Shown piece after piece: positions 1,188-47,170 of a stretch of DNA of 64,000 nucleotides. The translations under genes were made by a program, and so were the position numbers. The stretch spans positions 19,476 to 83,475 of IMG/VR virus record IMGVR_UViG_3300028888_000101. One strand, written 5' to 3'. The stretch comes from a virus. Lineage: Duplodnaviria > Caudoviricetes. The notes under the pieces were generated by a model, which made no database searches, had not been told where the DNA came from, and was given only the letters and a program-made list of their open reading frames with translations. Positions within the stretch are counted from its first letter, which is position 1; every line of letters starts with the position of its first letter.

Positions 1188-3158
1188 ATGAATAATAACA
1201 ATAAGAACAGTAAACAAACCATTCCACAAATAGTAAAACATTTTCTTACACGTGATGAAGATGAAGACCTTTTTAATCAGGTTGAGGAATATAATAACTA
1301 CGCCAATTATTCGATAGAGACATCTACAACTTCAAGGTCTATCTTAAATGCACTTAAAGACATCCCTTCAATGGTTGATGACCCTATCTGTGGTTCTGCT
1401 GTAAAAGCTGTAATGCAGACAACTTTCCAGACAAACGGTAATAACGAATTGTTTACACTTGTTACACCATCCACACTTATTGAAAACGAATTGAATGATT
1501 TCCATGAAGCAATCGGTGTAAATCAGTTCTTACTCACCACAGGATATAATAATCTTTTGTGGGGTCAGTTACCATGGAAACACATTTATAGTTCTGAGGG
1601 TGTTCTGGAAAGGGTTGTTCCTATTCCTGATTTCACAAGCATTACTCCGATTATTATCAGTGGTAAAACAATTGGATTCATAAATGAAAACGGTGACTTT
1701 GTTCCGTCTTATGAATACACATACAGTCAGCTTGAGTATTACAAGAATCTTGGCGGTAACTCTAAGAACGTTTCTATCACAATGGGAAGTAGTTCTTCTA
1801 ATCCTATTGAACAGACTTTGCAGAATGAGTTCACATACGCAAATAGTTATCTGGGACAGGCAAGTAAACCATGGAGAAACGTAAATGTAATCGAAGACGC
1901 ATTACTTCTCAATCGTATGGACCAAAGTAATTACTACAGAATCATCTCTGTAAATGTCGGTGCTCAGGTTTATTCTAAATCAGCTATTCAGGTTCTTAAT
2001 TATTACCGTAATCTTTTCAAGAAAGTAAGACGTGTTAATTATGATTCTGACGGAATGAGTAGCAGAGGTATCGGACAGAACTTCGAAGTTATTGTTCCTC
2101 AGACACAGAATCAAGGCGTAAACGTTCAGGAAGTTGCAGGAAATCCTGACATTAAAGCACTTAAAGACCTTGATACACAATATCAGAAACTCTTTGCCGC
2201 ACTTCAGATTCAACCGTCTATGATTGGATTCTCTGAAGATACACCGTCTTCACTTGGTGACAGTGCGGCTCTTACTTGGGATAAACGATTCGCTAAAGTA
2301 TGTAAAACACTTTCTTACAGTACATACGATGCCCTTAAAAATATTGATTATCTCCATTTGCGTTCACTTGGTTATAATGTTACTAAAGACGATTGGAAAT
2401 ACGCTACTGTATCTAATACAATTCAGGAAGACCAGGATAAAGGCGAAAGTCTTAAAATCGCTGTTGAGAATCTTAAAGAAATCACAGACAGTTTTACGAG
2501 TATGGAAGTTCAGTACGATAAAGAATATCTTATCAAAACTATTCTTGGCGATGCTCTCGGTAACTTTGGTGTTGATTCTGAAAAACTTCTTGCGGCTAAA
2601 GATGATGTCGGTGATGATAATGAACAACTTATGATTGCGACATCTCTCAGACAGGGTAAGATTAAGAACACATTCAAACAGGATATTCTTAATGAAGATG
2701 CTCGTGTTATGACTTTGAATGGTATTTATAAAGAGAGGGAAATCAAGAAGATTATTGCAGCATTTACTAAATCAGACGTAAAGGTTGAAGAACAGACCAC
2801 ACCAATGACACTTAAACAGCTTTGTTCTTCGTTTGTTGTTAAACGTGATAATCCTCTGAATCTCAAGGGATTTGTAGAATATGTTGATGATGAACCTAGA
2901 CTGATAGAAGATTCATTCATAGGCTCTAAACAAACAAACGGAGAAGCTGTACCGTTTAAGTTCCCTGTAATCTGTTCTAAAGAATATGAAGTTACAGCAG
3001 GTGACCTCGACCTTGGTGCAGTATCTTGTGTAAACAATCTGTATATCGACAAGAACGGTAATTATACAATCAACAGTAAGACTGACCTTGCAAGATATCT
3101 TTATAATTATATGAATGACGGTATTGATTGTTACTGTGGAACTGTATGGAAACAATAA
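1188..3158 (+). CDS. portal protein (T4 gp20-like) with C-terminal extension
   Basis: IEDALLLNRMDQSNYYRIISVNVG resembles the gp20 LEDAxxIYRxxRAPxRRxxYxDxG clip/stem motif; size and position upstream of neck genes fit. Confidence 0.8.
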   Translation: MNNNNKNSKQTIPQIVKHFLTRDEDEDLFNQVEEYNNYANYSIETSTTSRSILNALKDIPSMVDDPICGSAVKAVMQTTFQTNGNNELFTLVTPSTLIENELNDFHEAIGVNQFLLTTGYNNLLWGQLPWKHIYSSEGVLERVVPIPDFTSITPIIISGKTIGFINENGDFVPSYEYTYSQLEYYKNLGGNSKNVSITMGSSSSNPIEQTLQNEFTYANSYLGQASKPWRNVNVIEDALLLNRMDQSNYYRIISVNVGAQVYSKSAIQVLNYYRNLFKKVRRVNYDSDGMSSRGIGQNFEVIVPQTQNQGVNVQEVAGNPDIKALKDLDTQYQKLFAALQIQPSMIGFSEDTPSSLGDSAALTWDKRFAKVCKTLSYSTYDALKNIDYLHLRSLGYNVTKDDWKYATVSNTIQEDQDKGESLKIAVENLKEITDSFTSMEVQYDKEYLIKTILGDALGNFGVDSEKLLAAKDDVGDDNEQLMIATSLRQGKIKNTFKQDILNEDARVMTLNGIYKEREIKKIIAAFTKSDVKVEEQTTPMTLKQLCSSFVVKRDNPLNLKGFVEYVDDEPRLIEDSFIGSKQTNGEAVPFKFPVICSKEYEVTAGDLDLGAVSCVNNLYIDKNGNYTINSKTDLARYLYNYMNDGIDCYCGTVWKQ

Positions 3159-14308: not shown

Positions 14309-15331
14309 ATGATTAGATTAAACAATACCCCTAACGAAGGTTCTACTGTAAAGGTAAATCTCGGATTCCGTGATAGTGCCGGACAGTATTATATTCCTGC
14401 AAAGATTACCTATACATTCCTTGCATTAAATAACGATAAGGAAAGCTGGTCTGTAGTGGATAATCTTTATGAGGTTGCACTTACACCGGCAAGTTCAGTT
14501 ACTCTTACTATTCCTGATGTAAAGACAATTACAGGAACAACACTTTCAAGAAAGGTTATGATATATTGGGATGCTTTTGTAGATAATCAGTACAGCAGCT
14601 TTACTGATGAAATTACCTTTGATATCGCTCCAAAGCCATACATTCCAAATCCACCTTCACCACAACCTCAGCCGCAGATATATGTTGAAATCACAGACAT
14701 TCAACTTCAAATTGGAACTTTATCGACAGCTCCTGTAAATCCTGTATTTTTGCTTAAAACAAATCTTCCTGTGAATATTACGCAGGCTGTCTGTAGAGTT
14801 ATCGACAATGAACAGAATGAAATACCATGCACTATTTCTGTTTCTACTTCAGGTGCTAATCTTACCGTTGAACCTGATGCTTTGTTGAGTTATAACAAAC
14901 CGTATAAACTTGCAATAGTAGGTCTTAAATCAACAATTAATGAATATGAAATGAGAGAAAGATATGAATGTAATTTCGTAACGCAAAGCGAAAATTCACT
15001 TCATATTCCTCTTATTCAGGAGATTAAAGAAATATCAATTGTTGAAAACGGAACGTCTATCATCGAACCTGATGAAGGATATGACGGTATAAAACAGACT
15101 ATTGTAAGAACAGAAGTTCCTGAAAATCCAATACTTCTTTTTGCTTATCAGGGAACATCAATGTTTTATTTTACAAAAGAAATTACTATTACAGGAGTAT
15201 ATAAGATGTTTGTTCATTCACTTGAATCTTCACTTATAGATGTTACTGTAGAAAATGATAACATTAGTTTTGAATATAACGGTAATACCGAACACGTAAT
15301 CAGAAATAGTGGTATGGATATTATGAAATAG
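14309..15331 (+). CDS. virion-associated protein with Ig-like domain
   Basis: Beta-rich domains separated by a PNPPSPQPQP linker; Ig-like (SbsA/Big_5-type) middle; EPDEGYDG motif; probable start 14309. Confidence 0.5.
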   Translation: MIRLNNTPNEGSTVKVNLGFRDSAGQYYIPAKITYTFLALNNDKESWSVVDNLYEVALTPASSVTLTIPDVKTITGTTLSRKVMIYWDAFVDNQYSSFTDEITFDIAPKPYIPNPPSPQPQPQIYVEITDIQLQIGTLSTAPVNPVFLLKTNLPVNITQAVCRVIDNEQNEIPCTISVSTSGANLTVEPDALLSYNKPYKLAIVGLKSTINEYEMRERYECNFVTQSENSLHIPLIQEIKEISIVENGTSIIEPDEGYDGIKQTIVRTEVPENPILLFAYQGTSMFYFTKEITITGVYKMFVHSLESSLIDVTVENDNISFEYNGNTEHVIRNSGMDIMK

Positions 15332-15373: not shown

Positions 15374-15423
15374 AAGACTTCCCCTGAGTGTTGCCGCACG
15401 TTGAAAGGGAAGTCTTTTTTTTT
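15374..15423 (+). terminator. terminator between convergent genes
   Basis: AAGACTTCCC/GGGAAGTCTT stem, 23-nt loop, long T-tract. Confidence 0.7.
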
Positions 15424-16183
15424 ATTTCTTTAATCTGCCTGGAACAAAACCTTCAGGGCGGGTTCTTGCTCGAATATTTATTTTACCGTTATTGAAGAAT
15501 TTTAATCCTTTAATGGATTCACCTTGTTTCTTTAATTTGGATTTAAGCTGACCTGGTACAAATCCAATAGGACAAGTTTTAGCCATGACTTGTTCTTCAC
15601 CGTTTGTAAACCAATGAAGACCGTAACTACCTATTTTAGAAAAATCTCCAATTCTTCCGGGTTTGAAACCTGGTGGACATTCCTCACAGAATTTTTCAAT
15701 AGTTCCGTTATTATACCAATGACTTCGTTTACATCTTTTGGACATATTGTTTTTAGTTGCTTTAGTAAAATTAAGTCTACCTGGAATATATCCTTCAGGA
15801 CATTCTTTTGCTTTTATAGATTCGATACCATTATTAAACCATTTGTACTCAGCCATTTTCTGTTTTTGGCTATCTGATTTAGCTTTATTTTTGAAAGTTT
15901 TAGAGGTTGTATCTCGTCTATCAGGTAACATCATGTGCAGTTTTAGATGTTCAGTATGAGTTAAGAAAATAAATTCATTAGCCGGTCTATTATAATATAA
16001 ACCCAATTCATTTAATTGCGTTGGAGATAATGTATTTTCTCTAAGAGAGCCATCCCTATTATGTGTTTCTAATCTATGATGACAATGCCATATCTGAGTA
16101 TTATCTTTAATCGCTTTGTCATAATTTTCTATCAAAGAAACATTTTCACAGCAATATTCTTTTAATGTATTTTCACTAATCAT
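15422..16183 (-). CDS. HNH-type homing endonuclease-like protein with W(F/Y)xNG...CP.G repeats
   Basis: WHCHHRLETH...RPA.E.IFLT..EH..LH N-terminal domain; 4 C-terminal WxNNG-type repeats; paralog of 35272-36333. Confidence 0.7.
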   Translation of the reverse strand: MISENTLKEYCCENVSLIENYDKAIKDNTQIWHCHHRLETHNRDGSLRENTLSPTQLNELGLYYNRPANEFIFLTHTEHLKLHMMLPDRRDTTSKTFKNKAKSDSQKQKMAEYKWFNNGIESIKAKECPEGYIPGRLNFTKATKNNMSKRCKRSHWYNNGTIEKFCEECPPGFKPGRIGDFSKIGSYGLHWFTNGEEQVMAKTCPIGFVPGQLKSKLKKQGESIKGLKFFNNGKINIRARTRPEGFVPGRLKK

Positions 16184-16260: not shown

Positions 16261-17964
16261 ATGTTTAAGTACGAACTCAATTACACCAATCTCATCCATT
16301 TGTCAAAAGTAAAGGTTAATGAGAAAAAGCTCAAGTTAACACTATATTTCGATGGAAAGATTGAAAATCAGGTTTTCGCTAATCAGAGCGATTTTGATGA
16401 TGCTGTTGCAGAACTCGAAGACAAAGGACTTCTGCTCATTGGAGAAACATGGTACAATGTTGACCGTCTTTCTATCGTAGAACCAAATGCTAAAACAATC
16501 CGCTTTAACTTTATCGGTAACGTTACTATTACTCATGAGTATGCAGACGTATCAGAAGTTGAAGATGTTATTGCATTTATCGAAGGCGGATTTGTTGAAA
16601 TTAATGGTAAGTGGTATCAGGGTAAACAGATTCACGTTGCTATGACTAACCCTAACACACTCACAATCAACTATGACTTCCTTGGTATGGATATGTTCCC
16701 TGTAACATACGAAGACCAGGCAGCATTTGAAGACGCCCTTGATAAGATTGCTGAAATTGCAGAAGGTGGCGGTTCAGGTCCTTCTACAAAGAAAGTTGCT
16801 ACTCCAAAATTCACACCTTCCGCTGGCGGTGTACCAAGTGGAACAACTGTAACAATCACATGTTCGACAAGTGGTGCAACAATCCACTATACTACAGATG
16901 GAACAACTCCTGACGCAAGTTCTCCAACTTACTCATCTCCTATCGCAATCACAGCTGAAATAACAATCAAGGCTATCGGTGTTAAAGAAGGAATGGATAA
17001 TTCAAATGTTGGTAGTGCTCACTATACTGTTGTTCTTCCAAAGGTTGCAAATCCTGTATTTACTCCAAGTGCAGGTGAAGTAACAAGCGGAACTGAAGTA
17101 ACAATTTCTTGTGCAACTTCAGGTGCGACTATTTACTACACAACAGATGGTTCTACACCAACTGAAGATTCAACAGAATATACAGCACCTATCGCTGTTA
17201 CAGCTGCCGTAACTATCAAGGCAATTGCTGTTGCAACTGATTATCAGGATTCTTCTGTTGTTACTGCTGCTTATACAATTGGTGTTCCAACAGCTGAGGC
17301 TCCAACATTCGTTCCTAACGGTGGTGAAGTTTCTAAGGGTTCTACAGTTACTCTTTCAACAACAACTCCTGGTGGTGTAATCCATTACACAACTAACGGT
17401 TCAACACCAACAGCAAGTTCACCTGTTTACGAAGACCCTATTGTTATCAACGCTGATACAACAATCAAGGCTCTTACAATCGCAGACGGTTACAAGAACA
17501 GTTCAGTTGTAACAAAGAACTTCACAGTTCCTGCCGTAACATTGTATCGTTATATTGGCGATTACAATATGGTTGATGATGGTGAGGGTGATGTTGACCC
17601 AAGATACAAACTCACATCTGCTAATGCGTCAACTATCATTACAGGTCTTTCTTGGCTCGAAGAAAACATCTATAACGCTAATCCAAGCGAAGATGCTAAA
17701 CTTCCTGCTACTACAAGAGCGTGGGGTTCAGGTTCATCTGAGAAGACAATCCGTTCAAACTCACAGGCTGAAGTAGGTTATCAGATTATGTATGCTTATC
17801 CTGCAAGTCTTGGTGAACTTACTAAGTGTACAAACAACGGATTCGATAATACAGGTAGTTACACTCATGTAACTCTCACACTTGACGGTGAAGAATATCT
17901 CGTTTATTTCCTTACTACTCCAACAGGTAAAGAGGACCAGAACATGAGTTTGAGTTTCAACTAA
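16261..17964 (+). CDS. virion surface protein with three chitobiase/beta-hexosaminidase C-terminal (Fn3-associated, Ig-like) domains
   Basis: Three repeats of P.F.P..G.V..G..VT.S..T.GA.I.YTT.G.TP...S..Y..PI. Confidence 0.85.
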   Translation: MFKYELNYTNLIHLSKVKVNEKKLKLTLYFDGKIENQVFANQSDFDDAVAELEDKGLLLIGETWYNVDRLSIVEPNAKTIRFNFIGNVTITHEYADVSEVEDVIAFIEGGFVEINGKWYQGKQIHVAMTNPNTLTINYDFLGMDMFPVTYEDQAAFEDALDKIAEIAEGGGSGPSTKKVATPKFTPSAGGVPSGTTVTITCSTSGATIHYTTDGTTPDASSPTYSSPIAITAEITIKAIGVKEGMDNSNVGSAHYTVVLPKVANPVFTPSAGEVTSGTEVTISCATSGATIYYTTDGSTPTEDSTEYTAPIAVTAAVTIKAIAVATDYQDSSVVTAAYTIGVPTAEAPTFVPNGGEVSKGSTVTLSTTTPGGVIHYTTNGSTPTASSPVYEDPIVINADTTIKALTIADGYKNSSVVTKNFTVPAVTLYRYIGDYNMVDDGEGDVDPRYKLTSANASTIITGLSWLEENIYNANPSEDAKLPATTRAWGSGSSEKTIRSNSQAEVGYQIMYAYPASLGELTKCTNNGFDNTGSYTHVTLTLDGEEYLVYFLTTPTGKEDQNMSLSFN

Positions 17965-18024
17965 CAAATTTTTTGCCTATCTTGAAACACAGGTAGGCAA
18001 ATTTTATTTTAATGGAGGATATAA

Positions 18025-18723
18025 ATGGCTATTCCATTCAGTGATAACCTAGAATATCTCGGTCCAGACCCGGATTTTACCCGTCAGCAATATGCAACTA
18101 TTGCAGACATGAAAGCCGTAAAGAAAGGTCGTATGCCTGAGAAATATATTGGTTATTGCCTTGAAGACCGTAATTGGTATCAATACGATAAAAACAATGA
18201 AACTGATGAAGTTCTTGGCAAATGGCGACCTTTTGGTAGTGGTGAAAGTATTCAGAAAGCAGCCCTTCCTGAAGCAAGTGAAACTGAACTTGGAAAGATT
18301 TATCAGTATGTAGGAATTACCGGAACTTATACTCGTGGATTCTTCTATGAGTGTGTAGCCGAGGAACATACTACAACGGTAGATGTAACAACTGTAACTC
18401 AGTTCATCGAATTGATTTCTAACAGTGAACTTACTGTTCAGATTAAACTTGCAGATGAAAGTATTGTTGATACACCAGCTTATGAATTTGGTGGTGTATT
18501 CTATTTTATTTATGAAGATACAATCTATGGTGGTACAAAGGTTGAAGATGTAATCGTTGTTGCTGACAGTACAGCTTATACAACTGATGAACAGATTACT
18601 GCTCTTGGTATTACCTATGAATCAACTTCATATACTTATTCTTGGGATAACATTGACGTATCTTCAGGTGGTGGAACAATTGAAACTATTACTGTAGAAG
18701 AAGTTGATGAACTTTTCGAGTAG
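18025..18723 (+). CDS. fibre segment protein (MAI...-start, IT..EVD.LF-end)
   Basis: Motifs shared with neighbouring genes; see findings. Confidence 0.55.
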   Translation: MAIPFSDNLEYLGPDPDFTRQQYATIADMKAVKKGRMPEKYIGYCLEDRNWYQYDKNNETDEVLGKWRPFGSGESIQKAALPEASETELGKIYQYVGITGTYTRGFFYECVAEEHTTTVDVTTVTQFIELISNSELTVQIKLADESIVDTPAYEFGGVFYFIYEDTIYGGTKVEDVIVVADSTAYTTDEQITALGITYESTSYTYSWDNIDVSSGGGTIETITVEEVDELFE

Positions 18724-18739
18724 TCATAGGAGGAATAAA

Positions 18740-19732
18740 ATGGCTGAGAAAAAATATCTTGATTATGAAGGATTGACAGAACTTGTCGCAAAAATTAAAG
18801 AGTTTGTTGGAGATGCAGGAAAACTTGAATTCAAGGGAACTGTAATTGATGTTGCACATCTTCCAAGTGTCGCAGCTCAGAAAATCGGTTATATGTATAC
18901 CGTACAGACAGCCGGTAAAACAACTGCTGACTTTACAGATGGTGCAGGAAAAACAATTGCCGCTAACTCAGAAGTTGCAGCTGTACAGGTTGAAGGAACA
19001 ACTGAAGTGCCTGTTTATTCTGTAGATGCAGGTGCTTCTTATGTAACCGCTGACCTTCAGGCTTATACGCCAACAGGAACAATGAGTGCTGCAACAAAAC
19101 TTGCAAGTGCTTATGTAGCTGATGGAACTGAAACTCATCTTATAGACGGTACTCTTTATGTAACTGAAGATGGTGCTTCATTCTTCTCAGTAACAGCTCT
19201 TGCTGATACATTTGCAGATTTTACTAAGGTTGCAATTGATGATGAAGACGCTATCGCAGAACTTGGAACTCTCTATACAGGTGATTCTTTCAAAGACCTT
19301 AACGCTTATACAGAAACCATTACTGGAAATGTAATGATGTGGTGTCTGCTTGGACCTGTATTCGATGTAAGCAACAAACTCACATTTGGCGATGCTTTTC
19401 CAAGTAATCCTGAAAATGGTGACACATTCCTCTATATGGGACCAACTACAACAGAGGATGTTTATAATGAACTTACTCTCGAAGATGGTACAGATATTGA
19501 AGGTCTTGGATATTATCACAGAGCAACTGGTACAACAGACCCTTGGACACTTGCTTCTGAGACAACTGCCGATACAACTACATACGATTATGCAGAAAAA
19601 GAAACTGTAGAAAAGTATGTGAAAGGTGTAATCTATATTTATGATGAAACCGAAGGTGATTGGATTGCTCAGACAGCCGGAGACCAGTTTGTAGCAATTA
19701 CAACTTCTGAAGTTGATGCACTGTTTGACTAA
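18740..19732 (+). CDS. fibre segment protein (KYLD..GL-start, IT..EVD.LF-end)
   Basis: GGAGG RBS supports ATG 18740; Thr/Ala/Asp-rich. Confidence 0.55.
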   Translation: MAEKKYLDYEGLTELVAKIKEFVGDAGKLEFKGTVIDVAHLPSVAAQKIGYMYTVQTAGKTTADFTDGAGKTIAANSEVAAVQVEGTTEVPVYSVDAGASYVTADLQAYTPTGTMSAATKLASAYVADGTETHLIDGTLYVTEDGASFFSVTALADTFADFTKVAIDDEDAIAELGTLYTGDSFKDLNAYTETITGNVMMWCLLGPVFDVSNKLTFGDAFPSNPENGDTFLYMGPTTTEDVYNELTLEDGTDIEGLGYYHRATGTTDPWTLASETTADTTTYDYAEKETVEKYVKGVIYIYDETEGDWIAQTAGDQFVAITTSEVDALFD

Positions 19733-19849
19733 TCACTAAGCAAAATCTTCTAAAAACAAAATAACCGTATTCATAGCTAGTCTGTGGGTACGGTTATTTT
19801 TATATATTTTTATTATACATTCTTCAGTATTCTAAAGGAGGAAAAAGGA

Positions 19850-21298
19850 ATGGCAACGAAAAAATACCTTGACCAAACTGGACTTGCTGAAGTCGCAGGT
19901 TACGTCAACTCAAGATTGAAAACAGTTACTGCTATGCCAGTAAGTGCTAATAACAAAGCTGTTCGTCTTTACGTTGGTGAAGATACAGCAAGTTATCGTA
20001 AAGGACACATTTATCAGTATACTGTGAATACTTATTACGCTTGGAGACACGAAAGTCATCCTGGTGTATATCGTGATGTCTATACTTTGAGTGCAACACC
20101 GTCCGTTGATGATGATGTTTACGAATTAAATGAAGGACATTATGAGCAAAATGGTCTTGTAGAAGCTGTCTATAGTAACAGTATTGAGTATTCTGGTTAT
20201 AGTTGGGAAAGAACAGCTCAAGGAGATGTTGAGGAAAATCTTGGTTGGGTAGACATCTCTCTTACGGATTTTGTTAAACCTGTGGACGATTTACCATATA
20301 AAGCAGATATTGGTGACGTGGTAATTAAAGTAGGTCCAGGTACATCATATCCAAGAGGTCATATTTTCTTATGCACTGATGAAATTCACCTCTACGCTTG
20401 GGATTATGAATTCTATCCGGGAGAATTTAATTATGTTTTCACAACAACTGATTCGCCTCAGGTTGGAGACCATGTTTATAATCCTTCAAGTCAGGGTGCT
20501 GAGATTACTAACATCACGGTTGAAGATGATGTGGTTGTTGCAATCGAACTTAACAACAACGTAACATTCAATCGCAATTCTTCTCAAGATTACGATAATG
20601 CTGAATGGGAAGATATTACTGCTAGTGGTGGAAGTGCTGAAGATGTAAGTTATGAAAACGAACAGATTCCTTCAGCTACTAATGTTGAAGACGCACTCGA
20701 TACAATTATCGGAAAGATTTATTATGTAGACCCTGCAATTACATCATTTACAATGACACCAAGTACAGATACTTATGAGATTGGCTCTACTGTAAATGAA
20801 CTTACTTTTGCTTGGGCTTATAATAAAGATATTGTAAGTCAGACATTAACAGACTGTACACTTGCTGATGAGACTGTTCGTTCTGCAACTTATAGTACAC
20901 CTATCGATTCTAATAAAACATTCACACTTACTGCAAGTGATGGTGAGAAATCTGTTTCGGCAACTAAGTCAATTTCATTCAAGCATAAAGTTTATTGGGG
21001 TGCAGCTAGTGAATCTGCTAGTTTTGACTCAGCATTTATTCTTGCACTTACCGGAAAGAAGTTTGCAACAAACTATAAAGGTTCTTATAACATGAATCTT
21101 GGCGAAGGTCAGTACGGATACCTTGCTTACCCTGCTAGTTGGGGTACTGTAAGTGCTTGGTGGATTGGAGGATTCGAAGTTGAGACTTACGATTGTGGAA
21201 CAATTGAGTTCACAAACGCAAGCGGCAACACAACTACATTCCGAATTACAAGAACTACTCAGCCTAGTCTTGGTAGTATCACAGCTGAAGTAAAATAA
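19850..21298 (+). CDS. fibre segment protein (KYLD..GL-start, AYPAS.G-end)
   Basis: AAGGAGG RBS supports ATG 19850; internal repeated knob motif; Ig-like C-terminal part. Confidence 0.55.
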   Translation: MATKKYLDQTGLAEVAGYVNSRLKTVTAMPVSANNKAVRLYVGEDTASYRKGHIYQYTVNTYYAWRHESHPGVYRDVYTLSATPSVDDDVYELNEGHYEQNGLVEAVYSNSIEYSGYSWERTAQGDVEENLGWVDISLTDFVKPVDDLPYKADIGDVVIKVGPGTSYPRGHIFLCTDEIHLYAWDYEFYPGEFNYVFTTTDSPQVGDHVYNPSSQGAEITNITVEDDVVVAIELNNNVTFNRNSSQDYDNAEWEDITASGGSAEDVSYENEQIPSATNVEDALDTIIGKIYYVDPAITSFTMTPSTDTYEIGSTVNELTFAWAYNKDIVSQTLTDCTLADETVRSATYSTPIDSNKTFTLTASDGEKSVSATKSISFKHKVYWGAASESASFDSAFILALTGKKFATNYKGSYNMNLGEGQYGYLAYPASWGTVSAWWIGGFEVETYDCGTIEFTNASGNTTTFRITRTTQPSLGSITAEVK

Positions 21299-21310
21299 GG
21301 AGAATGAATT

Positions 21311-23617
21311 ATGGCAATTAAATTAGCAGATACATTAAAGCCAATGGGAGATTTCCCTGCGGCAGATGCAAGTGATGTTGAAATCACGTTACATGATGAA
21401 ACAAAGAAGTCTATTCAACAGGCTTATGAAGATGGCGACCTCGGTGGTGGAAGTAGTGATGTAGACCAAACTTACGATGCAGATTCACCAAGAGCACAGG
21501 CAGGTAAAGCTGTTGCCGAGGCTATTCAGGAAATATTTTTGGAAAATCCTGATTCGACAATTACCGCTCCGGTAGCTTCCACAGTTACTGTTTCTGAAAG
21601 TAAGGATATTTCTGGCATGTTCAAGGATGACCGAATTATTCTTCCAAGTGGTTCAACAATTAAAGGTCATGTGATTACAAACATGTCACACACTTTCGAT
21701 AACTCAATTTCAGTTTCAGCCGGACGTGTGGCAATTGACACATTTGACAGTCCTTGCGACCAAGACTACTGTTATGCCAATTCAGGCGTCACTAGCTATG
21801 CTCCTTTGAGTTCTAATGTAACAAACGTTGTGGGAACCTATCTCAATGCCGGACAGTTTAATGGTGCAGTGACAATTTCTGATACAATTAATAACATGTA
21901 TCAGACATTTGAAAATGCAGCAAGTTTCGATAGACCAATTACAATTCCTTCAGGAGTTACCAATCTCACTTCCACATTTAAGGGAGCTTCTTCTTTTAAT
22001 CAACCAATTACAATCCCTTCTGGAGTTACAGACCTCAATTCTACTTTTAATGGTGCTGCAGCTTTCAACCAACCTATCACTATTCCTGCTGGAGTTACAG
22101 ACCTCAATTCTACCTTCAAGGGAGCTTCCTCTTTCAACCAGCCTATTACAATCCCTGACGGATGTACTGATATGTTTGATATGTTCAATGGTGCAGCAGC
22201 TTTCAACCAGCCTATTAGTATTCCAGATACTGTTAATACTATTGGTTCTCTTTTCGAAGGTTGTGCTGCACTTGATTGTGATGTAAGTATTTCTTCTCAA
22301 ATCACTAATGTTCATGGTTTAATGAAGGGTTGTGAGAGCTTTAATGCAAATGTTACTCTCAATGGTGAAGTAACCGACATGTCTAGCATGTATGAGAACT
22401 GTTCTTCTTTCAATCAGCCAATCACTATTCCAAACACAGTTACTAATGCTACATATGCTTTCTCTGGTTGTCCGAATTTCAACCAGCCTGTAGGAAATCT
22501 TGACTATGTTGAAAACGCCTCTTATATGTTTAATAATTGTTCTAATTTCAATCAGCCCGTAGGAAACCTTGACAATCTCATTTATGGCACTAATATGTTT
22601 AGAAGTACAAAATTCAATCATCCTGTAGGTAACCTCAGCAATCTTGTTGACGGCAATTACATGTTAGGTGTTAGCTTCAACCAACCATTAAACCTTATCA
22701 GTCTTGTTAATGCCGAAGCTATGTTTATGGGCTCTGGTATTACTCAGCCTGTAGGTAATCTCAACAATCTTGTTCATGGTGCTCACATGTTTGAGTCATG
22801 TCTGAGTTTCAACCAGCCCGTAGGTAACCTCAGCAATCTTGTTAATGGTACTTATATGTTTAGCTACTGTTATTCTTTCAATCAGCCTGTAGGCAGCCTT
22901 ACCAGTCTTGTTCAAGGTTCATATATGTTTGGAAATTGTGAGAACTTCAATCAACCTGTTGGTAATCTTGACAATCTTGTTGATGGCTCCACCATGTTCA
23001 TGAGCTGTAAAAACTTCAATCAACCTGTAGGAAATCTTGACAATCTTGCTAATGGTTCTAATATGTTCTCGCGTTGTTCTAATTTCAACCAACCATTAAA
23101 CCTTGACAATCTTGCTAATGGTTCTAATATGTTCTCGCGTTGTTCTAATTTCAACCAACCTGTCAATCTCTCTAACTTAACTAATGGTTTTCAGATGTTC
23201 TCGCGTTGTTATAATTTCAACCAACCTGTTGGTAATCTTGACAATCTTACTGATGGTTCGCTCCTGTTTACTCAATGTCCCAATTTCAACCAACCTGTAG
23301 GCAATCTTTCCAATCTTACCAACGGTACTTCTATGTTCTCGTTTGCTCGCAGCTTCAACCAACCTGTTGGTAATCTTGACAATCTTACTGATGGTTCGCT
23401 CATGTTCTCTATGAGCAGCTTCAACCAACCTTTGTATCTTGGTGATAAAATTACTAACATGCAGGAGATGTTGTCCTCTTCTCCTTGGAAGTCCGTAGTT
23501 CATCTTCCAACTACAGTGCCTCTGTCTACTTCTAACTATATCTACAATTGTCTTGTAAATGGTAACTGTGGTGTGACAGTTCCTGCAGCAAACATCTTCA
23601 ATGACCGTGTTCTGTAG
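21311..23617 (+). CDS. BspA/DUF285-like leucine-rich-repeat surface protein, putative receptor-binding adhesin
   Basis: Roughly 25 tandem 21-23-aa FNQP repeats (FNQPITIP..VT.L..TF, then FNQPVGNL.NL..G..MF..C). Confidence 0.8.
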   Translation: MAIKLADTLKPMGDFPAADASDVEITLHDETKKSIQQAYEDGDLGGGSSDVDQTYDADSPRAQAGKAVAEAIQEIFLENPDSTITAPVASTVTVSESKDISGMFKDDRIILPSGSTIKGHVITNMSHTFDNSISVSAGRVAIDTFDSPCDQDYCYANSGVTSYAPLSSNVTNVVGTYLNAGQFNGAVTISDTINNMYQTFENAASFDRPITIPSGVTNLTSTFKGASSFNQPITIPSGVTDLNSTFNGAAAFNQPITIPAGVTDLNSTFKGASSFNQPITIPDGCTDMFDMFNGAAAFNQPISIPDTVNTIGSLFEGCAALDCDVSISSQITNVHGLMKGCESFNANVTLNGEVTDMSSMYENCSSFNQPITIPNTVTNATYAFSGCPNFNQPVGNLDYVENASYMFNNCSNFNQPVGNLDNLIYGTNMFRSTKFNHPVGNLSNLVDGNYMLGVSFNQPLNLISLVNAEAMFMGSGITQPVGNLNNLVHGAHMFESCLSFNQPVGNLSNLVNGTYMFSYCYSFNQPVGSLTSLVQGSYMFGNCENFNQPVGNLDNLVDGSTMFMSCKNFNQPVGNLDNLANGSNMFSRCSNFNQPLNLDNLANGSNMFSRCSNFNQPVNLSNLTNGFQMFSRCYNFNQPVGNLDNLTDGSLLFTQCPNFNQPVGNLSNLTNGTSMFSFARSFNQPVGNLDNLTDGSLMFSMSSFNQPLYLGDKITNMQEMLSSSPWKSVVHLPTTVPLSTSNYIYNCLVNGNCGVTVPAANIFNDRVL

Positions 23618-23713
23618 TAACTAAAGTTATTCCTAAAGTTTAACCCTATTATCTTCGTAAAAGAAGGTAATGGGGTTTTATTTTTCTAATATTAAAGTAT
23701 AAGGAGGAATAAT

Positions 23714-23959: not shown

Positions 23960-25069
23960 ATGGCTAAAGAAGAAAAGAAATTACAGATTACTGTCGGTAT
24001 TCCTGCTTTCAAGGCACAGGACCATATCGAAGATTGTCTATCTTCAATCAACATTCAGACAGTAAGAGATATTATTGAAGTAGTTATTGCTTCAGACAAT
24101 CCTGAAGACAACTACGATTATCTTATTGAAAAGTTCCCTAAACTGACAATTAAGACTATATCTTGTGAAAAGAATACAGGTCCGGGTCTTGCAAGACAGA
24201 GAGCACTTGATAATGCTACAACAAATTGGATTACCTTCATTGATGCAGACGATGTATTTATGACACCGTTCAGCCTTGAGCAGCTTGCAAAAGGTATTGG
24301 TGAAAATGTTATCGAAGTTCAGGGTCCGTTCTATCAGGAAGTTCGTGGAAATCCACAGGTACGAACAGTACAGCGTAATGATATTGGTCATCCTTGGGTA
24401 TTCGGTCGTCTTTACAATACTCAGTTCCTTAAACAGTATGGAATTCAGTTCAGTGAATTAAGAGCAATGGAAGACGGTGAATTCAACTGGAAAATCAGAA
24501 TGTCGATTGAAGGTACTCCTTTGAAGATTAATATTATCAACGACCCTATCTATCTTTGGAGAATCGGCAGCGAACATTCAATCACAAGAATAGGAGCGGA
24601 TGATAAAGGTATTCCTCAGTACAATTTTGACCTTTGCCAAATTGGTGCTACACAGGCAAGTATCAGAGCAATCAAGTTCTGCCGGGAAAAGAATCCTTTC
24701 AATGGTGGAATTACAAGATTTGCAACTGAAATGATGATTGGTCATTACTTTACATACATTGAATGTCTTGAAAGAAAACCGGTATTTGCCGAGCAGAATC
24801 TGTTCAACGCAAAACGTTTTTATCATGAAGCATACAAAGAAATTGAACATCTGATTAACGATAAGACTTTGAAAGATATGTATACAATGCAGTATGCTGG
24901 TCATTCTCAGCAGCTTATCGGTATTATTCCTCAGATTAGTTTCAATGAATTCTTTGATAAGGTGAAGAACGATAAGTACGATGGCGAAAACGAACTGAAG
25001 GAAATCCGTTCTAAATTCAGTAAAGAAATTCTTGATAACGATAAGAAGTGCGGTGTTGCAATCTGGTGA
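23960..25069 (+). CDS. glycosyltransferase family 2 (GT-A fold)
   Basis: TVGIPAFKA...CLSS...EVVI..D, GPG.ARQ, WITFIDADD (DxD) and EDGEF motifs. Confidence 0.9.
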   Translation: MAKEEKKLQITVGIPAFKAQDHIEDCLSSINIQTVRDIIEVVIASDNPEDNYDYLIEKFPKLTIKTISCEKNTGPGLARQRALDNATTNWITFIDADDVFMTPFSLEQLAKGIGENVIEVQGPFYQEVRGNPQVRTVQRNDIGHPWVFGRLYNTQFLKQYGIQFSELRAMEDGEFNWKIRMSIEGTPLKINIINDPIYLWRIGSEHSITRIGADDKGIPQYNFDLCQIGATQASIRAIKFCREKNPFNGGITRFATEMMIGHYFTYIECLERKPVFAEQNLFNAKRFYHEAYKEIEHLINDKTLKDMYTMQYAGHSQQLIGIIPQISFNEFFDKVKNDKYDGENELKEIRSKFSKEILDNDKKCGVAIW

Positions 25070-25836: not shown

Positions 25837-26502
25837 ATGGCTTTTTATCTGACAGAAAACAATAAAGGCGAAAGAATCAACTTTAGAGATAGTGGCAATT
25901 ATGCTCGTAGTTTTACTGGAGTATGTGAAACTCGTGGTGATTATGTAGGTGCCTCAAGATATATTTGCTATAGAACATCAACGAATAAAACATTATACAT
26001 ACCGTTCAGTAATGACCGCCAAAGTGAGATACATAATTCTGCAAATAATTATACGCTGTCATATGTTTCACCAGATATCACAATCAGTTATAGACTTGTA
26101 TGGAGATATGGTGATTACTACAGTTATGCTACTTCTGTTGATGCGTATATAACAGATATCAGACTTAATGTGAAAGTAAAAAAACCGTTAAACATATATG
26201 TGTTTGGTTGGTACAAAAATGAATATGACTATACTTGGCGTGAATTTAATAGAGGTCCTCACTCTACACTACCGGCAGGTGATACTAGACTTAGCGGTGT
26301 GTCTGTTTCTAATGGTATGTCACTTAGTAACTGGACATATTATGGTGTTGTAATTGAAGTTACTGATAGAACTACATGGAGTCAAGGCGGTGATTATCAT
26401 AAATATTATTTGATAGACTATCCTCCAAAACCAGGTAGTTCGAGTACCTATGTTCAGGAAGATACAATAACATTCTATGACATAAGAAGTATAGTAGCCT
26501 GA
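25837..26502 (+). CDS. Tyr/Ser/Thr-rich putative fibre or receptor-binding protein
   Basis: Beta-rich, aromatic composition; context. Confidence 0.45.
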   Translation: MAFYLTENNKGERINFRDSGNYARSFTGVCETRGDYVGASRYICYRTSTNKTLYIPFSNDRQSEIHNSANNYTLSYVSPDITISYRLVWRYGDYYSYATSVDAYITDIRLNVKVKKPLNIYVFGWYKNEYDYTWREFNRGPHSTLPAGDTRLSGVSVSNGMSLSNWTYYGVVIEVTDRTTWSQGGDYHKYYLIDYPPKPGSSSTYVQEDTITFYDIRSIVA

Positions 26503-28394
26503 TGATATCCATAATTATTCTATTCTGTGATAAAGACAAACATTACATTCCAAATATTCTCAAACAGATTAAAGACTACGTAAAGGTAAATCATGAAGTT
26601 ATTTTGATTGACAATAGAGATGACATATCTGAAGAACTTCATTTTGAGAATTGTCGATGTTATCAGTTTGGATATAATTCTACTCAGATACCTGCCAGAA
26701 AGAAAGGTATTGAAATGGCTAAGGGTGATTATATTTGGTTTATAGATGCTGACGATACTATTAATTATATTTATCCTGAACTTGAGGATTTAACTAAACA
26801 TGATTATGACATCATATCTTTTATAGAGTTTTCTAAGAACGAAGTTATTGAAAATAATGATGATGTAATGGCATACAACTATCGAACAATTAGCGTAGCG
26901 TTATGGAATAAATGGATAAAAACAGATATTCTTAGAAAAGTTGAAGAACATATTCCTATGGCGTTAAAAGGTCGTGCAAGTGAAGACAGTATGTTGGTTA
27001 TAGGAGCTTTGTCTATCTGTAAGACAATTTATATGTACGGCTATAAGATTTATAATTACAATATCCGTAACTCAGTATGCTGCAATCTGTTTATGAAAAC
27101 TATCGAGGACTACGAAAAAGTATTCAGGGGTTATGAAGAAGTACATCAATGTATTTACAACATGCTTACGGATAATCAAAAAGAATTATTTTTCAAACCG
27201 TTCAAATCAAATGAAGTTAATTTCTTTATACGAGTAATCTATGGTTGTTCTCCTGATATTATACCAGATTGTATTAGAATTATGGCGGAACATATTCCTC
27301 AAGAATATGGATATAAAGCATGGGATTATGTAAAGAATCTACCTTGGACAAAAGAAGGATACTTAGCCGTAACTAAATCGCTTGAAGAGATTTATCATAT
27401 AAGCACTAAAGAACCACCACAATACATTGAAAGATATACTACAGATAGTAATGGAAATGAACGTCTGTATAAACGTGAACTTGTTCCACCACAACCCATA
27501 AAACCGTTACTTGAATGGAATTATACTGTATCTATCATTTGTCTGGTTTATGACGGTAATGTAAAGTATTTGAAACCGTTCCTTGAATCTACTAAAAGAG
27601 TTGAGGTGAATCACGAGATTATTATTGTCGATAACAGAGACGATAAAACTGTTCCTCTCAGATACGATACTGAAAATACAATTATCGTTGAAACGGAAAA
27701 GAATCTCGGAATACTTGACGGAAGACGATTCGGATTTGAACATAGTACAGGAGATTATATTTGGTTTGTTGATATCGATGATGAGATAACAGAGGTAAAG
27801 AAACGTTACTATAGTGAAAGTGATATTATAAAATTTCCAGCCTTTGTAAATGATGAGGTTGTATTTGAATCTCCCTCTTTTGAATTTACAGGTATAGATA
27901 ATTGTGCCATAGAGGGTATATTGATAGGTATAAATTGTCTGTTATGGAATAAATGGATTAAGCGAGATGTATTAGAATCGGCATATAAATTAATTCCACA
28001 TTATTTCTGTGTTTTTGCAGAAGACCTTATCCTTATTACAGCCTGTCTTAAACATGCCAAAACTTGCAATCTTCTCGATATAATTCCTATGTATGCTCAT
28101 ACTAAAAATGAAAGTTCTGTAACAGCAAGAAAACTTAAGACTAAAGAAGATGTAGACAGATTATTTATCGGTAATGAACGTAGTAATGAAATACTTGAAG
28201 AATTTGGTGTTACAGAAATGCCTGAGATATGGAAGTATCATATCGGATTTTATATTCTTGAATGCACATTAAGCGATAATAAAATAAAACCATACTTTAT
28301 TGAAAAATTATACAGTATCTTTGGAAAGGAAGAAGTTATAAAGACTATAAACAGTAAATTGGATTTCTATGACCAACTGAAAAAATATATTTAA
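26502..28394 (+). CDS. tandem two-domain GT2 glycosyltransferase
   Basis: Two homologous halves, each with EVI/EII.IDNRD, DYIWF.D.DD, LWNKWIK and ED motifs. Confidence 0.85.
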   Translation: MISIIILFCDKDKHYIPNILKQIKDYVKVNHEVILIDNRDDISEELHFENCRCYQFGYNSTQIPARKKGIEMAKGDYIWFIDADDTINYIYPELEDLTKHDYDIISFIEFSKNEVIENNDDVMAYNYRTISVALWNKWIKTDILRKVEEHIPMALKGRASEDSMLVIGALSICKTIYMYGYKIYNYNIRNSVCCNLFMKTIEDYEKVFRGYEEVHQCIYNMLTDNQKELFFKPFKSNEVNFFIRVIYGCSPDIIPDCIRIMAEHIPQEYGYKAWDYVKNLPWTKEGYLAVTKSLEEIYHISTKEPPQYIERYTTDSNGNERLYKRELVPPQPIKPLLEWNYTVSIICLVYDGNVKYLKPFLESTKRVEVNHEIIIVDNRDDKTVPLRYDTENTIIVETEKNLGILDGRRFGFEHSTGDYIWFVDIDDEITEVKKRYYSESDIIKFPAFVNDEVVFESPSFEFTGIDNCAIEGILIGINCLLWNKWIKRDVLESAYKLIPHYFCVFAEDLILITACLKHAKTCNLLDIIPMYAHTKNESSVTARKLKTKEDVDRLFIGNERSNEILEEFGVTEMPEIWKYHIGFYILECTLSDNKIKPYFIEKLYSIFGKEEVIKTINSKLDFYDQLKKYI

Positions 28395-28420: not shown

Positions 28421-29068
28421 ATGGCAAATGTTAATATAACAGATGTAAATTGTTTCGGTGAAAATCTCAATCTTCCTGATAGTTTTGTCAAAGATATGAA
28501 ACAGACTATTTTTGACGCTGCTCATCCTATCGGTAGTATTTATATTCAGTATCCGAAAGAGAAGACACCTGCCGCTGTTTATAACAAGAATGGAATAACA
28601 TCCACTTGGTCTGACACTGCTGTAAGTTTTAGTGGTGCATTTTTCAGAGCTGAGGGTGGTAATGCGAAGTCTTTCAATGGCGGTAAACAGAACGGTCAAA
28701 ATAAGTATCATAATCATAGTGCTAATCATCAACATAATATGCAACACACTCACACTAGAGGTACTATGGAGATTACAGGTGATTATATACCAGGTGGCCG
28801 TGATTTAGACCTTGTGAATTGGGATATTCTTAAACCAGCATTTGGAATAAAACAAAACGGTATAGGAAATTTTGGTTGGGGTGCTAAAAATCCGGGCGAT
28901 TTTTTGCAAGGGAATTTCAAGGCAAGTCGTTGGTGGAAAGGCTTAAAATGTTCAGCCCCTTCAAAAACAACTACAGGTGACTCCTCAGATGAAGATACTA
29001 CTGAATATGGCGGCGATGAATTTAGACCTGAGAATTTAACTATTAAGATATGGAAAAGGACATCATAA
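28421..29068 (+). CDS. tail-fibre needle-tip module, paralog 1
   Basis: Collar IFDAAHP...QYP...GAFFRAEGG; HxH repeats; RPENLTIKIWKRTS end. Confidence 0.7.
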   Translation: MANVNITDVNCFGENLNLPDSFVKDMKQTIFDAAHPIGSIYIQYPKEKTPAAVYNKNGITSTWSDTAVSFSGAFFRAEGGNAKSFNGGKQNGQNKYHNHSANHQHNMQHTHTRGTMEITGDYIPGGRDLDLVNWDILKPAFGIKQNGIGNFGWGAKNPGDFLQGNFKASRWWKGLKCSAPSKTTTGDSSDEDTTEYGGDEFRPENLTIKIWKRTS

Positions 29069-29069
29069 T

Positions 29070-29768
29070 ATGGCTAAGACTTTAACTGAAATTATTTGTT
29101 TTGATAAAGAATCTAACATTCCTCAAAGTATATATAATGTGAAGAAACAAGCAATCTTTGACGCTGCTCATCCTAAAAATGAGATATATGTTCAATATCC
29201 TGGAACTAGTACACCAGCTGACCTATATAATAAGAACGGTATAACTTCAACTTGGCAGGTACAGACGGTATTTAATGGTGCCTTCTTTAGAGCAAGTGGT
29301 GGTAATGCGGACCCATTTATATCTTCAGGTGTCATTACAAAACAAAGTTCTCAAAACAATTATCATAGACACACTATAAATTTTCATAACCATAATATGC
29401 AGCATACTCACACAAGAGGAAATTGGGAGATATACGGTACATTAATTTTTGGTGCACGTGATATTGATGATGGATGGCGTATGAATGGGGCTTTCAAATA
29501 TACAGAATCTACATATCCCTCGTATACGTATGATTATAGGTCAGCTGAAGGTTATAGATTCGCTTTAGCTGATTTTGTAGCGAGTAGAACATGGACTGGT
29601 TCCACTTCTGATTCTATGGCAAATCAAACTAAAGAGGTTGATAATCCTACACTTAAAAAGAATACAGGAGATTCTAATCCTACAACTACAGAATATAATG
29701 GTGATTCTTCCGTACAAGAAGGAAGACCTGATAATTATACAATAAGAATTTGGAAAAGGACTGCATAA
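29070..29768 (+). CDS. tail-fibre needle-tip module, paralog 2
   Basis: Same architecture as paralog 1 with a divergent central tip. Confidence 0.7.
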   Translation: MAKTLTEIICFDKESNIPQSIYNVKKQAIFDAAHPKNEIYVQYPGTSTPADLYNKNGITSTWQVQTVFNGAFFRASGGNADPFISSGVITKQSSQNNYHRHTINFHNHNMQHTHTRGNWEIYGTLIFGARDIDDGWRMNGAFKYTESTYPSYTYDYRSAEGYRFALADFVASRTWTGSTSDSMANQTKEVDNPTLKKNTGDSNPTTTEYNGDSSVQEGRPDNYTIRIWKRTA

Positions 29769-29769
29769 T

Positions 29770-30420
29770 ATGGCGACAGATGTTGTAATTGGAAATATTC
29801 AGTGTTTTACAGATACCTCAGATATAACTGAACTTGTTTATAGACTTACTAAACAAGAAATATTTGATATCATACATCCTGTAAATGAGATATATACTCA
29901 GTACCCTTTAATGCCGGACCCTCAAACTCTTTATAACACTAACGGTATAACTTCTACGTGGGTGGAGGTAAATTTTTCGGGTGCTTTCTTTAGAAGTGAG
30001 GGTGGTAAAGCGAACTCTTTTATATCTTCAGGAACACTTAATAAACAGTCTTCACAAACCATAAAACACAAACACACGTTTCCACACACTCATGACATAA
30101 CACACTACCATACACCAGGTGACATGGAAATAACTGGTCATACAGGATATGGTGGTTCTAATCAAAGTGCACAATCTTTGATAACAGGTGCTTTTGCATA
30201 TACTGGTTCATTCGGTACACAGTTGGATGTAAATGATGACCCAGCAGGATTTCCTAAAGGCGATTTTTATGCAAGTCGTAGTTGGACTGGTTCCACATCT
30301 GATTCATCTAAAACAAATACAGACAGTAAATCTGTTGACACAAGTTATGACGGAAATGCTTCTATTCAAGAAGCCAGACCTGAAAACTTAACAATAAAGA
30401 TATGGAGAAGAACATCATAA
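29770..30420 (+). CDS. tail-fibre needle-tip module, paralog 3
   Basis: Same architecture as paralog 1 with a divergent central tip. Confidence 0.7.
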   Translation: MATDVVIGNIQCFTDTSDITELVYRLTKQEIFDIIHPVNEIYTQYPLMPDPQTLYNTNGITSTWVEVNFSGAFFRSEGGKANSFISSGTLNKQSSQTIKHKHTFPHTHDITHYHTPGDMEITGHTGYGGSNQSAQSLITGAFAYTGSFGTQLDVNDDPAGFPKGDFYASRSWTGSTSDSSKTNTDSKSVDTSYDGNASIQEARPENLTIKIWRRTS

Positions 30421-46903: not shown

Positions 46904-47170
46904 ATGATTGAATTTGATGAAACATTATCACAACGATATAACGGTAAAGAAGCTGTAATGAGGCGTATCGAGACACGTATTAAACATACTACTCACGATA
47001 TACCATATTATCAACGTGGTCTTGATGTATCTGAATTTGTTTACGGAAGTCAGGTTGCTGCAATAAAACTCGCATTCAAAGACTTTGGACCTAATATAAA
47101 ATTTGATGGTGTAAACTCAAGAATTCAATTCTATGATGTAAATATTGATGTAAATGTAGGAGAAGAATAA
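46904..47170 (+). CDS. baseplate wedge subunit (gp25-like)
   Basis: RI...I.....DIPYY..G motif; size and position. Confidence 0.55.
   Translation: MIEFDETLSQRYNGKEAVMRRIETRIKHTTHDIPYYQRGLDVSEFVYGSQVAAIKLAFKDFGPNIKFDGVNSRIQFYDVNIDVNVGEE

Follow-up and report, generated by a model that had tools for sequence, protein, structure and literature searches.

The long tail fibre of phage T4 is made up of four co-encoded proteins joined end to end (gp34-gp35-gp36-gp37), with their genes in three transcription units (PMC3004832). In the anchor-branch receptor-binding proteins, with groups represented by the Klebsiella phages KP32, KP34, Menlow and PhiK64-1 as well as by K1-5/SP6, G7C and CBA120 (PMC6872550, PMC13352976), one protein has a branching domain, to which a second protein binds by a conserved N-terminal peptide (PMC6872550), as experiments with KP32, K11 and KP34 have demonstrated (PMC13352976). 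Here, we describe a cluster of five putative fibre genes, G1 to G5, in a 64,000-nucleotide stretch of phage DNA (the window), which covers bases 19476 to 83475 of an 83.5-kb IMG/VR virus record with a CheckV completeness estimate of 59%. A preliminary description of the window had noticed that the protein termini match pairwise in gene order and had proposed that they link separate polypeptides head to tail. The open reading frame (ORF) translations of the whole record bear out the genes with their termini and all four pairings of motifs, each of the four motifs being present in exactly two copies and confined to these five genes:

16261-17964, plus strand: G1, 567 amino acids; an N-terminal region without matches, three immunoglobulin-like (Ig-like) CHB_HEX_C_1/Fn3_assoc repeats and the C-terminal G1C domain
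18025-18723, plus strand: G2, 232 amino acids; the G2N domain, then a repeat insert that varies, then the E module at the C-terminus (alignment A2, 30 sequences)
18740-19732, plus strand: G3, 330 amino acids; member of a large family running from K to E, with an inserted domain
19850-21298, plus strand: G4, 482 amino acids; begins with a K-type N-module, varies in the middle and ends in the two-domain G4C
21311-23617, plus strand: G5, 768 amino acids; the G5N peptide, then DUF285/BspA-type leucine-rich repeats (LRRs); phrog_22899

We lean, with modest confidence, towards the reading that these genes encode one multi-protein receptor-binding appendage, joined serially or in branches by N-terminal docking modules, which would most likely be a tail fibre or a branched fibre complex. 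Each protein would consist of an N-terminal attachment module, a variable body and a C-terminal module, and its N-terminal module would bind, without a covalent bond, the C-terminal module of the product of the gene immediately upstream. The putative pairs are the G1C domain with the G2N domain (G1 to G2), E (a strand and a short helix) with K (a strand and a helix; G2 to G3 and G3 to G4), and, for G4 and G5, the double beta-sandwich G4C with the peptide G5N. G3, which bears both K and E, would be an extender, and G5, with its BspA-type LRRs, would be the distal adhesin. Physical docking, as well as the stoichiometry of the complex and its location in the virion, is what we infer from this module grammar. 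A fibre context is suggested because several viral proteins with the G4C fold carry tail fibre or tail protein names, the G3 model weakly resembles tailspike domains, G1 is Ig-like, G5 has LRRs, and the phage encodes a sheath, a hub and a portal.

The claim that no such system had been described is too strong, since the T4 long tail fibre (PMC3004832) and the anchor-branch proteins (PMC6872550, PMC13352976) share the principle; the principle is known, and it is the modules and the extender arrangement that are without earlier description. As in the anchor-branch systems, the receptor-binding protein genes are consecutive, and the downstream protein has a short conserved N-terminus and a variable distal part. 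The anchor-branch docking peptide lets whole proteins be exchanged, with binding demonstrated in Klebsiella phages, whereas here binding is predicted from the gene order. The anchor-branch platform is a T4gp10-like branching domain, whereas the candidate platforms here are the E strand-helix, the G1C beta-sandwich and the G4C double FN3/Ig-like sandwich; in fold searches, the models of G4C and G3 brought up FN3/Ig-like and small tailspike domains and no gp10-like chain. A further difference is that the E/K pair recurs here at two successive junctions, via a protein with both halves, and the anchor-branch systems have no sequence relation to the G1-G5 modules in Pfam, PHROGs and PDB sequence searches.

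With T4, the cluster has in common that the proteins are separate and co-encoded, and that its likely transcription units, G1, G2-G3 and G4-G5, resemble the three of T4; the serial joining would be a further likeness. No two junctions of the T4 fibre are alike, and no cognate motif pair recurs there; the T4 proteins are also much larger. No homology of G1-G5 to gp34, gp35, gp36 or gp37 was found in PHROGs or Pfam, and PDB sequence searches gave nothing. The likely units are bounded by the three strongest terminator-like hairpins of the region, which lie 3' of G1, of G3 and of G5:

17972-18001, plus strand: terminator-like hairpin in the G1/G2 gap, with an 11-pair stem and a T run
19758-19800, plus strand: terminator-like hairpin in the G3/G4 gap, with a 19-pair stem and a T run; the strongest of the region
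23642-23677, plus strand: terminator-like hairpin 3' of G5

The preliminary description had called the first protein Ig-like and the last an LRR adhesin, and Pfam agrees in both cases. G1 matches PF13290 (CHB_HEX_C_1; E = 5.5e-63) and PF13287 (Fn3_assoc; E = 1e-55), in three stretches each and above the curated cut-off, and G5 matches PF03382 (DUF285; E = 3.2e-79, 262.9 bits versus a cut-off of 25) with at least nine DUF285 repeat stretches, as well as LRR_5 slightly below its cut-off (26.6 versus 27.7 bits). G5 shares its repeats with BspA-type LRR/DUF285 surface proteins, from which it differs in that the repeats are fused to the phage G5N peptide in a fibre gene cluster. Neither Pfam nor PHROGs holds a family for G2, G3 or G4, and when G2, G4 and profiles of the G3 family and of the K and E motifs were compared with PDB sequences, no match rose above chance level, so that the module families are without a named function in Pfam and PHROGs and without a solved relative.

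Order of the module pairs across related loci

Across many phages, we find the modules strictly at the protein termini, reassorted among different bodies and with the genes in cognate order. We collected 93 loci by three retrieval routes (G3 homologues, G4C and a K-start DNA pattern), called genes with our own script, labelled the termini with hidden Markov models (HMMs) and counted unique same-strand junctions. The start of the next gene after each type of C-module was as follows:

After E: K 69, G2N 2, G5N 0, unlabelled 25
After G1C: G2N 17, other labelled 0, unlabelled 3
After G4C: G5N 13, other labelled 0, unlabelled 4
After no labelled C-module: K 20, G2N 4, G5N 3, unlabelled 492

Each C-module gene is thus mostly followed by its cognate N-module gene, and the adjacency test that the preliminary description had proposed strongly favours coupling (E to K, odds ratio = 50, Fisher's P = 2e-44, for junctions that are not phylogenetically independent). 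The observation is thereby borne out, and it extends far beyond this phage. Among the noncognate junctions, 14 have the cognate gene after one inserted gene, including all four nonadjacent G4C to G5N cases, and two of the single-gene inserts at cognate junctions are HNH endonucleases by Pfam. G5N still follows G4C whatever the N-terminus of the G4C protein, G2N occurs before E or G4C alike and is still preceded by G1C, and the proteins at E to K junctions belong to 10 body families on the upstream side and 7 on the downstream side. The high-GC contigs L089 and L091 also contain the G4C to G5N pair. Pairs are kept from AT-rich rumen-type to high-GC contigs, and a variant E/K pair occurs, which argues for conservation of the pairing at the protein level.

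This conservation bears on the view that the gene ends and short spacers are recombination linkers, that is, DNA homology patches for swapping fibre bodies with no protein contact role. Mosaicism is consistent with it, as the first 30 amino acids are identical between the window G4 and a 353-amino-acid protein of L005, with related ends and different bodies, and so are the HNH genes inserted at junctions. We nevertheless regard it as very improbable: the motifs are conserved as protein and not as DNA (L089/L091 versus the window), codons differ between the two K motifs of the window, the spacers are not conserved, and the strict terminal position and predicted secondary structure of the motifs point to a structural role.

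The usual gene order is a short E-only gene, then a gene with K and E, then at least one K-only gene with a variable C-terminus, which is the order that a head-to-tail chain predicts. The window record has as many E as K modules (two of each), and so do most loci with the whole cluster; the downstream proteins keep the N-module and vary in the remainder, as in receptor-binding proteins.

Several observations weigh against docking between neighbours. Tandem K-only genes with one N-module type follow a single E in L073 and L011, L008 has five E and four K modules, and G2N genes come after an E gene in L008 and L017. In L005, the nearest relative, four annotated genes lie between G3 and the G4-like gene, and in L007 the stretch from the G3-like gene to the downstream genes contains neither G4 nor G5. 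Of the fusions of partner modules that the preliminary description had suggested looking for, no natural E-K fusion was found, and a search for longer homologues gave one weak 1316-amino-acid match only, which is weak evidence. The median gap between cognate genes is 21 nucleotides, and tight DNA linkage together with descent could yield much of the diagonal of the counts. K and E might also pair within one chain, since both occur in one polypeptide of a large family, and the E and K motifs look alike at both junctions, which leaves unexplained how the order of the proteins would be fixed. Finally, the cluster lies about 13 kb away from the sheath and baseplate genes, and the complex could conceivably sit elsewhere on the virion, e.g., at the neck or head.

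Part of this evidence also fits parallel independent fibres, in which each protein would be attached alone, with the N-termini as anchors to common virion sites, the C-termini as folding, trimerisation or ligand-binding domains, and the gene order co-inherited through the spacing of about 20 bases. The tight linkage, the tandem K-only genes, the sometimes unequal E and K counts, the reshuffling of the cluster among close relatives and the nature of G4C as a widespread, distal-looking Ig/beta-sandwich module are all in line with such an arrangement. It leaves unexplained, however, the order of E-only, K+E and K-only genes over 10 by 7 body families, and it gives no account of the missing cross-pairs among the three module pairs or of the persistence of the pairs over very different base composition. 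Moreover, five proteins would need five virion sites, yet there are three N-module types, and we consider independent fibres somewhat unlikely. Under the docking reading, the unequal counts and the tandem K-only genes fit branching or alternative tips better than a strict linear chain. The arrangements in L005 and L007 indicate that G4-G5 behaves as a mobile two-gene cassette.

The E and K modules and the G3 family

The two ends of the E/K pair were located in the window as follows:

18688-18720, plus strand: E motif of G2 (ITVEEVDELFE)
18740-18775, plus strand: K motif of G3 (MAEKKYLDYEGL), predicted to form a short strand and a helix
19019-19324, plus strand: insert in G3 (amino acids 94-195), not in the 217-amino-acid family core
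19697-19729, plus strand: E motif of G3 (ITTSEVDALFD)
19850-20029, plus strand: K-type N-module of G4, about 60 amino acids (MAxKKYLDxxGLxxVAxxVNxRLKTVTxMP...)

K (KKYLDxxGL) and E (ITxxEIDxLF) are opposite ends of one large protein family that includes G3, for which we found 171 homologues of 212 to 390 amino acids with a family core of about 217. Among the G3 homologues listed, essentially every complete one has the KKYLD start and the EIDxLF end (at least 120 members), and 64 ORFs of the fetched loci combine K and E in a single chain. Over the 75 related loci fetched first, the HMMs match K in 122 ORFs, always N-terminally, and E in 135 ORFs, always C-terminally, and none of the ORFs in the fetched loci has either motif at an internal position. 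The K-type module is common to proteins of 106 to 973 amino acids, which thus show the conserved short N-terminus and variable remainder of anchor-branch proteins. Two candidates were set aside: a regular-expression match to K in the ORF at 47170-49062 is a false positive, and P0141, considered as an E-K fusion, is a hybrid of G2N and the C-terminal half of G3.

An AlphaFold2 model of the G3 core (predicted local distance difference test [pLDDT] score, 88.6; predicted template modelling [pTM] score, 0.50) has a strand and a helix at each terminus and two small beta domains between them. The two small domains show a weak likeness to trimeric phage tailspike domains, several times to N-terminal parts (Z = 5 to 6), and a Foldseek search of the G3-core model against the PDB gave nothing significant. 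In the monomer, the termini have a pLDDT of about 80 to 87 and the N-terminal strand is scored as paired, which is in keeping with K and E forming a clasp within one chain or homotrimer, so that only E-only and K-only proteins would complement in trans and G3 would not be a chain link. The joint presence of K and E in the 64 locus ORFs and the listed family members is consistent with such a clasp, as is the covariation between E and K segments, which is as strong within the chain as between adjacent genes (mean mutual information Z = 1.18 for same-chain and 1.06 for adjacent-gene pairs, from only about 60 sequences). The pTM of 0.50 despite the high pLDDT, however, speaks against a rigidly closed molecule. 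The order of E-only, K+E and K-only genes is universal, with direct E-only to K-only neighbours not seen in the fetched loci, and chains of several K+E genes exist (L060, with K106E, K188E and K608). Taken with these points, the clasp appears improbable to us.

If G3 is a docking link, an extended version of the reading may be put forward, which we hold to be unlikely in its full form: E/K would be a generic, self-compatible connector pair with E-only starters, K+E extenders that can be duplicated, inserted or even joined to one another, and interchangeable K-only receptor-binding caps, which, together with G1C/G2N and G4C/G5N, would make up a grammar for fibres of variable length and branching.

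The G3 insert is 34% identical (E = 4.3e-12) to a stretch at 38319-38630 inside the tail sheath protein, so that sheath and fibre protein alike seem to display a common surface module. The independent DNA-pattern retrieval gave the variant pair mentioned above, with ITNAEIDxIxA followed by MAxKKYLDxxGLxYFWxKIK. In the high-GC contig L091 (6575-8333), a 63-amino-acid protein with a G5N start and an E-like end (...DDINNLF) is followed by a K-like 268-amino-acid protein ending in ...TDAEIDALF and then by another K-like protein; all three connector types thus occur together far from rumen phages.

The G1C/G2N and G4C/G5N pairs

The remaining two pairs comprise larger C-terminal domains and distinct N-terminal partners:

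17536-17961, plus strand: G1C, the C-terminal domain of G1 (amino acids about 426-567; alignment of 10 G1-like C-termini)
17791-17814, plus strand: YAYPASLG (G1 amino acids 511-518), inside G1C
17833-17844, plus strand: NNGF, inside G1C
18025-18354, plus strand: G2N, conserved over about 110 amino acids (MAIxFxDNLxYxGxKPDFxRQQYAT ... GFFYEC)
20618-21295, plus strand: G4C, the C-terminal approximately 222 amino acids of G4; an FN3/Ig-like domain and a beta-sandwich
21122-21145, plus strand: LAYPASWG (G4 amino acids 425-432 of 482), inside the G4C beta-sandwich
21311-21391, plus strand: G5N peptide (MAIKLADTLKPMGDFPAADASDVEITL)

The preliminary description had treated these as a single type of junction with a terminal YPASxG motif. 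In both G1 and G4, YPASxG lies about 50 residues from the end, within the C-terminal beta-sandwich domain, and the two N-termini that start with MAI, the MAIPFSDNL domain and the MAIKLADTL peptide, belong to unrelated families. Their homology was ruled out by profile comparison (hhalign probability, 1.9%), and there are therefore three cognate pairs rather than two. On the C-terminal side, G1C and G4C share a distant homology limited to the last approximately 125 amino acids (hhalign, 89 to 92%), a link seen by profile-profile comparison only, as the G4C HMM does not match G1-like proteins.

G1 is conserved in L005, L007, L008, L015, L017, L058 and L060. G2N heads not only G2 but also many proteins that end in G4C. 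The middle of G2 (18355-18687; alignment A2) is built from a repeat unit of about 60 to 80 amino acids (...TVxVTTVxxxxELI...YFVxExxxYGGT...ADSTxYTTDE...), which is missing from relatives of 142 to 149 amino acids and present in about one to four copies in longer relatives, indicating that it acts as a length-variable spacer.

For G4C, we observe 2605 matches among 1.84 billion representatives, and among the best 150 of these nearly all end within about 20 residues of the protein C-terminus, with two covering only the N-terminal half of G4. The module is found paired in proteins with K, G2N, G5N or other N-termini. Its AlphaFold2 model (pLDDT 96.4, pTM 0.84) is FN3-like (Z = 7.6), and in BFVD the fold is common in viral proteins (E down to 3e-18), several of which are named tail fibre or tail protein, those of crAss-like phages included; a G4C homologue in phage Tunturi_5 is annotated as a tail fibre. 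G5N belongs to a peptide family of about 25 to 45 amino acids (MAxKLADTLxPMxDFP...) with 18 distinct N-termini in proteins of 63 to 998 amino acids, again a short conserved N-terminus of the anchor-branch kind.

Upstream of G1, a gene at 14309-15331 encodes 340 amino acids with weak Big_5/transthyretin-like matches and a conserved end (...KDIM[KR]), with counterparts at 6395-7405 in L005 and 5763-7220 in L008. The G1-like proteins, in turn, have a conserved start (MF[KN]YxLxxxNLIHLSKV; window 16261-16320). The boundary between the two genes may be a further junction, with the chain beginning one gene earlier. Between them in the window lies an ORF of 253 amino acids on the minus strand (15422-16183), with repeated GF[VI]PGR motifs, an HCHH-like motif and no match in Pfam; in relatives such as L005, the 340-amino-acid gene and the G1 homologue adjoin without it.

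Inserted genes, phage setting and the meaning of the module pairs

Genes inserted exactly between cognate fibre genes were observed at L005 14640-15452, L081 6898-8022, L076 3630-4997, L078 6699-7892 and L082 4097-5176, and the conserved gene ends may be homing sites. In L005, an HNH gene lies between the G4-like and G5-like genes. A family of 131 to 170 amino acids (MxIEVxK...YxVxPN; L005 13027-13539, L007 1610-2053, L015 from 4838, L025 from 10657 and L060 11074-11511), without a match in Pfam, is regularly found just upstream of K-start genes that have no preceding E gene, and it frequently separates an E gene from the following K gene; its product could serve in assembly or as an accessory protein. 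A further recurring junction (L005 11082-12775, L007 4475-6324) pairs the end ...SDTSKVWIDTG[GA]N with a transglutaminase-core protein of 416 to 422 amino acids that starts with MQVKVWDSxQRQW.

The window also encodes the structural proteins of a tailed phage, with baseplate-hub-like and fibritin-like proteins as well as the following:

1188-3158: portal
37527-39938: tail sheath, an ORF of 803 amino acids

Together, the portal, the sheath and the baseplate-hub-like and fibritin-like proteins identify the phage as a large uncultured myovirus. Its G+C content is about 34%, and a megablast search of the region against GenBank phages gave no match, with nothing close at the DNA level; the nearest relatives are contigs of 73 to 144 kb from gut and rumen-type metagenomes. 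Downstream of the fibre cluster, two glycosyltransferase genes (23960-25069 and 26502-28394) are followed by three tandem paralogous ORFs (28421-30420; 215, 232 and 216 amino acids), each matching the C-terminal part of phrog_34297.

Should the docking prove real, one could predict from the three unannotated module pairs which fibre proteins come together; one of the modules, G4C, has some 2,600 representative metagenomic relatives. The pairs would thereby help to annotate the many "hypothetical" genes that lie in receptor-binding clusters of phages from gut and rumen, crAss-like ones among them, and would allow modular host-recognition systems to be read by rule from the sequence alone. K+E extenders would, in the same case, represent a new way to lengthen or diversify a fibre by the addition of a whole gene.

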